Below are positions 12,708 to 42,620 of a stretch of DNA of 64,000 bases, piece by piece. The translations under genes and the position numbers were made by a program. The notes under the pieces were generated by a model. That model was not told the DNA's origin. It saw nothing but the letters and a program-made list of their open reading frames with translations, and did no database searches. Position 1 is the stretch's first letter, and the number at the start of each line of letters is the position of its first letter. The stretch comes from Octopus sinensis (lineage: Eukaryota), in the NCBI RefSeq assembly GCF_006345805.1, contig NC_043000.1:65968001-66032000 (forward strand), given 5' to 3'.

Positions 12708-12746
12708 CTTTTTGAAAATCAGCGTAAAATGTAAAACCGGTTAAAG
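12708..12746 (+). ncRNA. Degenerate minimal hammerhead ribozyme (U3:A8 variant, G12 lost)
   Basis: CUUU-UUGAAAA-U[CA...UG]U-AAAA-CCGG-UU-AAAG at the PLE1 3' end. Confidence 0.55.
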
Positions 12747-13074
12747 CTTCAAATATTTTCACTATTCTCAGTGCATTTTCAACTTCTATTTTCTATATAT
12801 ATATACTTTATTTAAAGCAGCAGAAAATGCAACAAAATCTGTTACTCTGAGTTTCTCAGAGTAACAGATTTTGTTGAATTTTCTGCTGCTTTAAATAAAG
12901 CATATTACTCTACCACTGGTATTTGAGTACTCTTTTTTCCACCTTGTTTCACATTATATGTTTACTCCGGTATATATATATATATTATATATATATATAT
13001 ATATATATATTATATATATATATATATATGAAAAAGGGTTTGAAAATGAAGAGGTCTTTTAAATATGTTAATGG

Positions 13075-13114
13075 TTTGACCGGTTTCACTTTTTAATAAA
13101 AAGATTATCAAAAG
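13075..13114 (-). ncRNA. Minimal hammerhead ribozyme (U3:A8 variant) in a solo PLE terminal repeat
   Basis: UUGAUAA-U[CUUUUU/AUU/AAAAAG]U-GAAA-CCGG-UC; stem I weak. Confidence 0.65.
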
Positions 13115-13975
13115 TAAAATGTAAAGCTTTGTATAAGCTTTGTTGTGTTAAAAACCGGTTATCATAGTTGTATTAAAATACAATTATACAGTCTTTGATA
13201 ATGATTAAAAAATAGAATCTTTGACAATGATAAGAAAATGTTAAGATGGGCTTTTTGTTGAAACAGTTTACATGAAAGTGTTCAAAATAGGTAGTAAAAT
13301 AAATTTATAATTATTTTAAGTTCATATATATATATATATATATATATAGTAAAGTTTATTTGCCAACAAAATGTGGCAGTCCTACACAGGACGATGTTAC
13401 TACTGTTTAGCCCTATAGAAACATCTTTTCCGGCTTACTACTGACACAGTTTGTGTCCGTATAGTATGAGCAAGAGAGGTTATCGCTCCCATCTCTAGCC
13501 TTCGTGATACTCACAAACCTAAGTTTCTGGGTTGTTTCCCGTCTTCTGTGTGAGACAATCACAGGCTACTGATGAAGGATTATTCGATTTGCTCATACTA
13601 TATATTTTTTAAAGCGACACACAGTCGTTGATCTCCTAAAGAAGGAATCAACTAAATCTCTGAGCGAGAGATAAGCAGTACCAGTACCGAACAGTACAGT
13701 TTATTTGCCAACAAAATGTGTATTTATGTGTGCGTGTGTGTGTGTGTGTCTGTGTTTGTCCCCGCTCCATCACTTGACAACCGATGGTGGTGTGTTTATG
13801 TCCCCATAACTTAGAGGTTCGGCAAAACATCGATAGAATAAGTATTGGGCTTACAAAGTATAAGTCCTGGGTTCGATTTTTTCGACTAAAACCCTTTGAG
13901 GCGGTGCTCCAGGATTGCCACAGTCAAATGACTGAAACAAATAAAAGAATAAAAGTATATATATATATATATATA

Positions 13976-14760
13976 TGACGTCTAGATGACGTCTAGCTCT
14001 GCTAGAATGGACAGGATACAAACAGGGGACAGTCATTAGTCAGAATATTGATGACGTCCTTTTCTGCTTGAATAGTCACCTAACAAGTACAGACAGGGGG
14101 CAGATCTAATGTAGCTATAAGTCGTGATTGGGCAGAATCTGGATGACGTCCCGCTCTGCTTGACTAACGAAGCGACTGGTCAAAACAGGAACCAACAAGA
14201 GGCAGATATAATGCAGCGATTGGTCAAAATAATGATGACGTCCCGTTCTACTTGACTAACGAAGCGACTGGTCAAAACAGGAAACAAACAAGAGGGAGTT
14301 ATAATGCAGCGATTGGTCAAAATAATGATGACGTCCCGTTCTACTTGATTAAAGCCACCTAACGAAACGATTGGTCAAAACATTGATGACGTCACGCTAC
14401 GCTAGATTGACCACCTAACAGCATTATAAAACCGAGCATTTCACAAAAACTCACTAGAACCACCCAGCGAACTTCCACCATGGGTCATCACAATTGCTTA
14501 AGGTAAAAATGAATTCCTCGCTCTTTCGGAAACATCAATCTCCTGTATTGACCGCTTTCCACCACTTTGATCTGTTTTTTGTATTGAATACGTATCGCCA
14601 CCGTGGGCCACTGCATCGAACACGTTGAACATATACTTCAAACTATATATCAACTATACATGAACTATATATCAACTATACATGAACTCTAAGATGTCTG
14701 ACTCCGTTGTGTATTATAAATGAATTTCTTGTGTTTGACGGCATGAGCTGTCTTTTTTTA
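13976..14760 (+). repeat. LTR-like element with a tandem ~92-bp enhancer array
   Basis: Seven TGACGTC motifs, repeated GATTGG, TATAAAA at ~14425, embedded in (TA)n. Confidence 0.5.
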
Positions 14761-14892
14761 TATATAACTTTTTTTGATAAGGTTCATTTCAGGAACTGAA
14801 ACATGTTATAATGTATATATAAAAATTAAAAATTGTATAATACAGCAGCATTTTCGAACTTCATTTTTTACAAATATATATATATATATATA

Positions 14893-40593: not shown

Positions 40594-40989
40594 TATATGT
40601 ATGTAATATAATTTTTCTGAATCTTCAAATTTGAAAAAATTTGAAGATTCAGAAAAATTATATTACATACATATAAGAGGGATGACCACTGAGTGAACAT
40701 CCAATATGCTAAATGTAGATCCCATATGGTCTGCCCACTAAGAAAAAATTGTTATCAAGAAATTTCGACAAACGCCAGAACATAAGCGAACAAGACAAAT
40801 GAAAAGATACAAAATATAATTAGTCACATACCAGATTTCATTGTTACCATTTACATATTTACATACGTAAATGCCTGCAAATCATCAGTGCGACCGTCAT
40901 AGAAAATATAATTTGCAGAACTGTACACGAAACGTCAACACGAGAGAGAACATGCATATAGTTCTGTCAATTATATTTGTGGGTATATT

Positions 40990-41252
40990 TCAAATGTCTT
41001 CGTGGTCATCCTTCTTATATGTACCCATTCCATTCCGGTCATTCAAAATGTGACCGCGTGTACCGTTGGCGATTTTTTTCCTCCGTCTTCCCTTCTTTGT
41101 ATCTTTCCCTTTCCTATGTTTCTGAAGAAGAGCTCCGCTCGAAACGTTAAACCCTCCTTCTTTCCTTCCTTCCTGAGCGTCCAATAACACTATACTTGTT
41201 CCACGTGCTCGCGTTGTTGTGTTTTCTCTTTGTGTTTTCATGTTTGGATTAA
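40990..41252 (+). mobile_element. Solo terminal repeat (pLTR) of the PLE3 family
   Basis: Strong similarity to 33760-33898, ending TGTTTGGATTAAC-(TA)n. Confidence 0.85.
41118..41152 (+). ncRNA. Minimal type-I hammerhead ribozyme (canonical CUGAAGA core)
   Basis: GUUU-CUGAAGA-A[GAGC/UCC/GCUC]-GAAA-CG-UU-AAAC; predicted cleavage after 41148. Confidence 0.85.
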
Positions 41253-41431
41253 CTATATATATATCACCGTGATCGACCAGGCTATCAGATGTTGCTACAC
41301 ATCGCTGGTCACAATGCGCTTCACATTGTTTTAGCCTTCAAATGACGCCACCCCGCTGGCTAAGCGAGCAGGCCAATATATATATATATATATATATATA
41401 TATATATATATATATATATATACACACACAG

Positions 41432-41940
41432 AAGTGACTGTGTGGTAAGAGGCTTGCTTCCCAACCACATGGTCCCGGGTTCAGTCTCACTGTATGGCAC
41501 CTTGGAGAGTTACTTGCTCAATGGTTGAACGAAGGGTGGGCATCCAGCAACAGGACCTCCGTAATGCTATGATGGACCGTGAAGTCTGGCGTAGCATGGT
41601 AAATTCCATTGTTTTGACCACGGTCGAACAATGATGATGATGATGGCACCTTGAGCAAGTATCTTCTACTATAGCCTCAGGCCAATCAAACCCTTGTGAG
41701 TAGATTTGGTAGACGGAAACTGAAATAAGCCCGTATGTATGTGTTTATGTGTCTGTGTTTGTGTTTGCCCCTTCCACCATCGCTTGACAACCGATGTTAG
41801 TGTGTTTACGTCCCCGTAACTTAGCGGTAGTATGCGCACCAAGCTTACAAAGAATAAGTCCTGGGGTCGATATGTACGACTAAAGGCGGTGCTCCACCAT
41901 GGCCACAAGGAAATAACTGAAACAAGTAAAGGAATAAATA
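41432..41940 (+). mobile_element. CORE-like tRNA SINE carrying a nested LINE 3' fragment
   Basis: The SINE sequence resumes after the insertion at 41643. Confidence 0.82.
41505..41642 (+). mobile_element. Very short 5'-truncated RTE-like LINE 3' end
   Basis: GIQQQDLRNAMMDREVWRSMV plus (TGA)n tail; 11-bp TSD ATGGCACCTTG (41494-41504, 41643-41653). Confidence 0.8.
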
Positions 41941-42424
41941 TACATACACATAGTATTATTATATATGTATATACATATGTCATGGTACATATATGCATAT
42001 ACCTATCATATTTTCCACATATGCATATACTTTCCTTTTACCGAGCGTCAAGTTAATACATTTCTTGTGCACGTCTTCACGTTCGTTTTTAATCGTTTAT
42101 TTGAATTGCTTGTTTATTTGAACTGACAATATATATATATATATATTATATATATATATATATATATATATATATATATATATATATATTATATATATAT
42201 ATATAAGAGAACAAAGTGTACGTACGCCGCTATATATATATATATATATATATATATATATATATATATATATATATAAAATACAAATAGGACAAGGACG
42301 CAAAACATCCAGGCAGACGATACAAAGAAAACAAGGACGGATTCATTCGAAGTTGTCTATCTTCAGTCAAGAACCAGATTATCTTTGCAATTTCGGTTGA
42401 TTATATATATATATATATATACAT

Positions 42425-42620
42425 AGTTCAAATTTATAGAAATAGAAAAACAAAAGACGAAGACAGGTGTAGGAACAGCATGCAAGTGTAATAGTTTAAC
42501 GCTCGGGAAAAATGGAAAGTCTTTTACGTTTCGAGCCTACGCTATTTGATGGAAAGAATGAGAGGGAAAATGAAGAGAATGAAAAAAAAAAAACGGAGAG
42601 AGAATAACTGTGTAGTGTTC
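42425..42620 (-). mobile_element. Solo PLE2-family pLTR with decayed hammerhead core
   Basis: ...GCGUAGGCUC-GAAACGUA-AAAG retained; CUGUNGA core mutated. Confidence 0.75.

Follow-up and report, generated by a model that had tools for sequence, protein, structure and literature searches.

What are the small hammerhead-like motifs scattered through a 64,000-nucleotide window of the Octopus sinensis genome (assembly GCF_006345805.1, contig NC_043000.1, positions 65,968,001 to 66,032,000 of the forward strand), what carries them, and do they cut RNA? We consider it highly probable that they are minimal type-I hammerhead ribozyme folds (min-HHRs) lodged in the 3' terminal repeats (pseudo-long terminal repeats, pLTRs) of several families of Penelope-like elements (PLEs), that the short units lacking an open reading frame (ORF) are 5'-truncated insertions of such elements, and that they spread by the mechanism set out below. 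For comparison, stretches of the same genome (2.72 Gb, microsatellite-rich) were retrieved, and these are referred to as L-numbered loci.

Hammerhead motifs in the window

The window was searched with a descriptor that leaves positions 4, 6 and 7 free and calls for a C3-G8 or U3-R8 core, no fewer than 3 bp in each of stems I and II, a palindromic stem III, and H17. This descriptor accepts six of the nine sites at which a motif had been proposed (core starts 25053(-), 27684, 33773, 35327, 35840(-), and 41122), and 100 dinucleotide-shuffled versions of the window yield a mean of 0.25 and a maximum of 2 hits. The original prediction of at least eight motifs and one decayed copy stands with regard to homology, which is found at all nine sites, and holds only in part with regard to integrity: three sites (12708, 13075(-), and 42521(-)) are decayed or fail the descriptor. 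At 13075(-), stem I is down to 2 bp relative to the other members of its family (C); at 12708, a GAAA is absent (G12 is A) and stem II is broken; and at 42521(-) the suspected decay is evident from a core reading CCAUCAA. The textbook CUGANGA core is seen at only one of the nine sites, 41122. The cores had been treated as ordinary, whereas the copies of one family (A) lack the conserved A6.

An origin of the motifs by chance within AT-rich repeats might be suggested by the single textbook core and by a Rfam scan in which no hammerhead family appears among the best 150 of 153 matches at E<=1, a search that is uninformative for minimal variants. This explanation has a negligible probability, being refuted by the shuffles (six hits against 0.25), by more than 26,000 exact pattern matches genome-wide against none for reversed control patterns, and by stem covariation between families and between organisms. 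The relevant features of the window, with family names as defined in the next section and RT and GIY-YIG denoting reverse transcriptase and nuclease domains, are the following:

10260-12805, plus strand: 5'-truncated, broken subfamily E PLE (RT, zinc linker, GIY-YIG, 3' pLTR), 80-88% to L165-L170 by blastn, with an unrelated insertion at ~11230-11545 and an ORF 66% to that of family C (tblastn)
12708-12746, plus strand: decayed subfamily E min-HHR with a UUGAAAA core; would-be cleavage after 12742
12813-12971, plus strand: family F 3' stub with an inverted duplication, truncated within hammerhead stem III and absent from the nine proposed sites; longer copies in L043, L135, L238, and L284
13030-13325, minus strand: solo family C 3' stub flanked on each side by a (TA)n tract; min-HHR with a 2-bp stem I, H17 at 13078, and its core starting at 13111
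24910-26641, minus strand: 5'-truncated, broken family A PLE (end of RT, GIY-YIG, C-rich 3' untranslated region [UTR], pLTR), its ORF 50-60% to that of family B at the amino acid level
25021-25058, minus strand: family A min-HHR, CUGUGGA core plus A9b (U6), ACGU palindrome; H17 at 25026
27603-27815, plus strand: solo family A stub of ~213 bp, 96-98% to L002, L013, L020, and L023, ending in (TA)n at 27815-27906
27679-27716, plus strand: family A min-HHR with U6 core; H17 at 27711
28792-33899, plus strand: 5'-truncated family B PLE with an ORF bearing frameshifts and stops to ~31460, a long (ACAT)/(CA)-rich 3' UTR and a pLTR, followed by (TA)n at 33899-34046; 86% to the full-length element L121 over 3065 nt, and matched by tblastn
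33769-33803, plus strand: family B min-HHR, CCGACGA core plus A9b, ACGU palindrome, GUC triplet; H17 at 33799
34345-35411, plus strand: family C 3' UTR fragment of 1.07 kb, 93% to L161, ending in (TA)n at 35405-35516
35321-35365, plus strand: family C min-HHR, U3-A8 core, U10.1-U11.1 mismatch, ACCGGU palindrome; H17 at 35359
35709-35890, minus strand: solo family A stub of ~180 bp; min-HHR at 35808-35845 with U6 core, H17 at 35813
41023-41264, plus strand: solo family B stub of ~240 bp; min-HHR at 41118-41152 with CUGANGA core, H17 at 41148
42402-42600, minus strand: old solo stub of family A with a decayed core, CCAUCAA; H17 at 42525

Families and carrier elements

Three families had been proposed, and these (A, B, and C) are recovered; the number is nevertheless too low, as 12708 belongs to a fourth subfamily (E) and the stub at ~12813-12971 to a fifth family. 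Family A has the core CUG-U-N-GA followed by an A, stem II arms GAGC/GCUC, and an ACGU palindrome (15,175 exact 22-mers genome-wide); family B has CYGACGA followed by an A, with the same stem II arms and the ACGU palindrome (10,568 exact 20-mers); and family C has UUGAYAA, a U-U followed by a U/A-rich stem II, and an ACCGGU palindrome (604 by a tight pattern). These counts are lower bounds, and the reversed control patterns for the three families have 0 matches genome-wide. Further families, D, E, and F, were found besides these. All six subfamily E loci (L165-L170) have a homologous fold with a U3-A8 core, a U-U, and a 4-bp stem II. Family D (L151-L154; contig C1665 and others) is a very young PLE family with many identical protein matches and, in L151, pLTRs that are 100% alike; its motif has a U3-G8 or U3-A8 core, a 2-bp stem II, and an ACCGGU palindrome. 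Family F (L043, L135, L162, L238, and L284), with a CUGAUGA core, a 2-bp stem II, and a near-palindromic 9-nt stem III, commonly occurs as an inverted pair, and no linked ORF was seen in these loci.

The plan of the full-length element, namely, pLTR(HHR)-tail-ORF-3' UTR-pLTR(HHR)-(TA)n, is seen in L121, L122, and L131 of family B and in L158 of family C, where the paired pLTRs are 99% identical and lie 5.9-6.3 kb apart, and the hammerhead fold is located in both pLTRs. In L121, the second pLTR is 99.7% identical to the first and is followed by (TA)n, and the open frame spans 1008 codons (948 amino acids from the Met). Its product displays the motifs GLRF, DKG, and YIDD, a C-x4-C-x2-C linker, LIY...YVG, and CxxC/H/H; its AlphaFold model has a pLDDT (predicted local distance difference test) score of 79.7, and all top 10 matches of the model in the PDB are telomerase RTs. 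The L121 ORF is a telomerase-like RT with a C-terminal GIY-YIG/CCHH module, making this a single-ORF, endonuclease-bearing (EN+) PLE. A CX2-5CxxC linker between the RT and the endonuclease was found in the ORFs of families B, C, and D. A Pfam GIY-YIG match is present in homologues, with the L121 protein itself falling below that model; Pfam searches gave no match for the eight PLE fragments of the window and only weak RVT_1 matches for the full ORFs, and a PDB sequence search gave no match. By the features described in PMC8557442, the carrier elements fit Neptune or Nematis as defined there. Many of the closest full-length homologues (ENA, Logan; P0001-P0060) lie on contigs of ~3 kb, roughly one element unit, and these may be collapsed tandems, transcripts, or circles.

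A motif on the same strand lies 3' of the ORF in 16 of 20 family B loci and in as many of 20 family A loci; for family C, this arrangement is clean in 6 of the 10 loci L155-L164 and rearranged in 2 more. Intact pLTRs of family A were seen only on the 3' side. Each of the three long elements of the window (one each of E, A, and B) is broken and 5'-truncated, and the proposal that three of the motifs stand at the 3' ends of RT/GIY-YIG elements is borne out; the proposed high density of minimal type-I folds with a palindromic stem III in PLE terminal repeats is likewise supported. The 3' UTR of family B (~2.4-3 kb) is mostly (ACAT)/(CA) microsatellite (L121:5660-8400; window 31460-33700), so that the element itself spreads microsatellite arrays.

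Covariation of the stems

Covariation across copies had been named as a check on the fold, and it is present between families and in the motifs of other organisms. Between families, the 3-8 pair is C-G or U-A, I.3 is U-A or C-G, II.2 is A-U or C-G, II.3 is G-C, U-A, or A-U, and II.4 is C-G, U-A, U-G, or G-C. Pairing within families is partly inflated, because stems II and III were part of the search patterns. In 80 metagenome loci with related ORFs (276 kb), we found 22 motifs whose stems varied yet remained paired, against 0-2 in each of 20 shuffles. We also considered an “anti-hammerhead,” in which a CCUGAGCG motif 3' of the cleavage site (53 of 71 copies in A and 60 of 70 in B) is able to base-pair with the 3' strand of stem II; this is unsupported, the mean pairing probability being 0.29 in A and 0.15 in B, and the motif being absent in 21 of the 22 motifs of other organisms.

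Solo units as probable truncated insertions

The remaining motifs of the window had been placed in solo repeats of ~200-300 bp, with the suggestion that these may be either retrozyme-like or severely 5' truncated. Five of the six units are indeed ~180-300 bp; the sixth, with the copy at 35321, measures 1.07 kb. To characterize such units, 30 genomic copies per family were sampled, along with a further 30 of family B that were chosen through an anchor lying downstream. The proposed adjacency to (TA)n holds: in the 200 nt that follow the cleavage site, (TA)4 or more occurs in 27/30 (A), 27/30 (B), 29/30 (anchor-picked B), and 29/30 (C) copies, against 21-28% of background windows. The cleavage site and (TA)n are separated by an almost constant distance, with medians of 102 (A), 104 (B), 105 (anchor-picked B), and 45 nt (C), and family C has a second 3' end near 80-97 nt that resembles the PLE tail. 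The 5' extents, which are lower bounds, are ragged, at 35-528 nt (A), 52-1521 nt (B), and up to 885 nt (C), and the 3' ends of the solo units coincide with those of the autonomous elements.

Non-autonomous non-LTR retrozymes spreading via self-cleaved circular RNAs would be an alternative source of the 200-300-bp units, which overlap in size with retrozyme monomers (150-450 bp; PMC7229834), and an origin of retrozymes from PLE pLTRs has been proposed (bioRxiv 10.64898/2026.07.22.740005). The solo copies and the non-LTR retrozymes of these two reports thus have in common short units, type-I hammerheads, and a kinship with PLE pLTRs. However, the retrozymes described there form tandem arrays of fixed monomers and carry canonical HHRs with loop-loop contacts, whereas the copies seen here are dispersed stubs of variable length with minimal HHRs, and they share no 5' end. 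Among 59 arrays with a period of at least 100 in 1.45 Mb of partly overlapping sampled loci, only 2 bear a hammerhead, both with just two copies and both from loci retrieved because the pair had already been seen; no hammerhead array of three or more units was found in the sampled loci. The retrozyme reading is thereby largely refuted for these loci, and we rate it as very improbable. Fixed 3' ends, ragged 5' ends, and the lack of arrays together indicate that the solo units are likely to be 5'-truncated insertions of the same PLEs rather than independent RNAs, which favors the truncation half of the earlier suggestion.

Further, 28 of the 30 anchor-picked family B copies extend at least 30 nt beyond the cleavage site, which suggests that the template is mostly uncut there. 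This agrees with the internal RT start, the unprocessed RNA as main template, and the protein-assisted HHR reported in PMC11167929.

The U6 core of family A

Position 6 was not part of any search pattern used for the core samples. In family A it is U in 71 of 71 sampled copies, which otherwise keep C3, U4, and G5 (67, 70, and 68 of 71) and vary at position 7 (G20, U23, A17, and C11). Groups split by position 7 are only 69-76% alike over ~175 nt and all have U6, so that U6 is either older than their split or survived it. Genome-wide, 474 copies have a base other than U at this position, against the family count of 15,175, and a hand count of the first 100 of them (C 68, A 23, and G 9) points to a mutation spectrum and not to a hidden A6 master. 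A6 is found in 68/70 family B copies, 42/47 parsed family C cores, 9/10 subfamily E copies, and 22/22 motifs beside related ORFs in metagenome contigs; family B in turn has U4C in 52/70 copies. Lünse et al. 2017 reportedly gathered ~150,000 hammerhead variants with a short stem III. That study, cited in PMC6765202, lay outside our literature search and may cover A6U; within the search, no A6U hammerhead was found, with 0 mentions in the available text of PMC3088659. In Figure S3 of PMC4209133, all 56 aligned motifs have A6, the descriptor used there having demanded cuganga.

By these comparisons, family A is best described as hammerhead-like and homologous to the min-HHRs, not as a canonical member. 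Its U6 core is likely to cut more slowly than those of B and C, if at all, and the prospects of its cutting at any useful rate are about even.

Insertion junctions at the cleavage site

If cleaved RNA sometimes serves as template, 5' junctions should gather at or just after the cleavage site. In family B (minus strand), (TA)4 lies within 30 nt upstream of an anchor placed 17 nt past the site in 163/3343 copies (4.9%), as against 95/5286 (1.8%) by the same measure in a window upstream of the ribozyme. Sorting by hand places 12 of the 33 listed loci at the site, 2 upstream, and 19 downstream; for two AAAC words 7 nt apart that straddle the site, 12 junctions fall at the site word versus 1 at the other (p=0.003). 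In family A, the 44 loci divide into 10 at the site, 7 upstream, and 27 downstream, the matched words give 10 versus 5 (p=0.30), and the upstream window has 212/7697 against ~4% downstream, the latter with an estimated denominator. The difference between A and B is not significant (p=0.13). One family A upstream pLTR (L268:6200-6220, minus strand) starts 2 nt past the cleavage site, where it adjoins a family F stub in inverted orientation, and the six other family A upstream pLTRs seen keep the whole hammerhead.

Truncation density tracks microhomology to (TA)n, with a second region of high density 90-240 nt upstream. Given this confound, the junction step is rejected as proof of cleavage and kept as a hint; RT pausing at stem I could also produce the same step. 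The family B 5' ends at the cleavage site may be taken as a weak hint of cutting in vivo. In a look for expression, no run annotated as RNA was listed as a carrier. Contigs of four runs over L121:2200-5700 have neither back-joints nor a pile of ends, and contigs cannot show ends.

Proposed mechanism

To the architecture, the linkage to PLE ORFs, the fixed 3' ends at (TA)n, the ragged 5' ends, the covariation, and the fixed U6 seen in these sequences, we add steps drawn from published PLE biochemistry. The GIY-YIG domain of the PLE protein would nick AT-rich DNA, in this case (TA)n, a reaction for which a role of the linker has been hypothesized (PMC8557442). Target-primed reverse transcription would then start at a fixed internal site ~45-105 nt downstream of the hammerhead, usually pass through the uncut hammerhead, and usually abort early. 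The hammerhead itself may cut slowly as a dimer via its ACGU or ACCGGU palindrome, probably with help from the protein, and thereby trim tandem transcripts; the majority of the dispersed single copies probably have no activity.

Several observations weigh against hammerhead folds working in this manner. In the youngest subfamily of family B, stem I.2 is a mismatch of U with U (19/69 copies), the ACGU palindrome duplex alone provides only -1.7 kcal/mol, and unconstrained co-folding of three window copies yields a hammerhead dimer in none, the last being no test of such a dimer because the procedure ignores the non-standard pairs of the core. In 40 stretches of 10 kb, we found no family A element whose two pLTRs were both intact. 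Family A is without A6; a natural A6C variant cleaves at <0.1 per min (PMC3088659), and mutants of the CUGA turn have low activity in a type III hammerhead, the 3-8 swap excepted (PMC9901934).

The slowness of A6 mutants in these two studies, together with the U6 of all 71 family A copies, would also suit a fold kept for a non-cutting role, such as protein binding, RNA folding, or pLTR transcription signals, at least in family A, whose U6 would be catalytically dead. In vitro, HHR mutants left insertion by the PLE protein of an anole unaffected, and RNA-seq ends were lacking at the anole PLE cleavage site (PMC11167929); Naiad PLEs spread without canonical HHRs (PMC8557442); and the 5'-end step of family A is not significant (see above). 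On the other hand, family A keeps exactly the C3, U4, G5, G8, A9, GAAA, U16.1, and H17 (A or U) that a hammerhead requires, its position 7 is free across subfamilies as distant as noted above, and 1 of 7 upstream pLTRs, that of the near-full-length element in L268, begins 2 nt past the cleavage site. We view a purely non-cutting role as rather unlikely. A stronger proposition would be that family A is an active natural A6U hammerhead, maintained by selection in four or more subfamilies and over more than 15,000 insertions, and also that the 5' truncation step records self-cleavage of PLE RNA in vivo; taken jointly, these two claims appear doubtful to us.

Comparison with known systems

The PLE min-HHR system was described in 2014 by Cervera and De la Pena (PMC4209133). 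The octopus motifs share with it the type-I topology, the short stem I, the extra nucleotide after A9, the loopless palindromic stem III, the presence in both pLTRs, and the thousands of mostly single copies per genome; the Acropora Neptune example there has nearly the layout of family B, and the Schistosoma U3-A8 cores match families C and E. They differ in the U6 of family A as against the A6 of all 56 published motifs, and families B (U4C) and C/E (U10.1-U11.1) would also escape the cuganga descriptor. With the Neptune/Nematis EN+ PLEs (Craig et al. 2021, PMC8557442), the carriers share the single ORF, the TERT-like (telomerase) RT, the C-terminal GIY-YIG, the CX2-5CxxC linker, and the CCHH motif, as well as pLTRs, 5' truncation, inverted copies, a tail extension, and the targeting of microsatellites; no difference was found from what is described there, the family B 3' UTR being unusually long at ~3 kb. 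Among natural core variants (Perreault et al. 2011, PMC3088659), U3-A8, U4C, U10.1-U11.1, and a slow A6C are all reported; that A6C is a single phage sequence, whereas the A6U seen here, unmentioned in the available text, is fixed in a family of more than 15,000 copies. The system itself is known, and as far as the literature found extends, the novelty lies in the junction step and in a family with a fixed A6U.

Other repeats in the window

Besides the PLEs, the window contains an LTR retroelement at 4178-9224, whose 418-bp LTRs are 99.8% identical and whose minus strand encodes RT, RNase H, and integrase domains; a Helitron-like Pif1 helicase fragment at 16281-18504; a non-LTR RT fragment at 43455-44663; and a mariner-type helix-turn-helix fragment at 57855-58280. 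A 726-bp direct duplication (44918-45642 and 45605-46328; 98%) is possibly an assembly artefact.

Implications

Whether PLE hammerheads cut in vivo is treated as an open question in PMC11167929 and PMC8557442. In the O. sinensis genome, dated insertions number in the tens of thousands and come from sister families, one with a near-canonical core (B) and one with a U6 core (A), both in the same stem II and III context, which makes the question of cutting testable. If family A does not cut, it would be a case of a PLE that prospers although its ribozyme is disabled, the fold nonetheless being conserved. If it does, descriptors that require A6 would miss whole hammerhead families; and should an active A6U core and the cleavage reading of the junctions both be true, they would provide evidence of PLE hammerheads at work in vivo, for which we have found no precedent, and add a new substitution to those that the hammerhead core tolerates.

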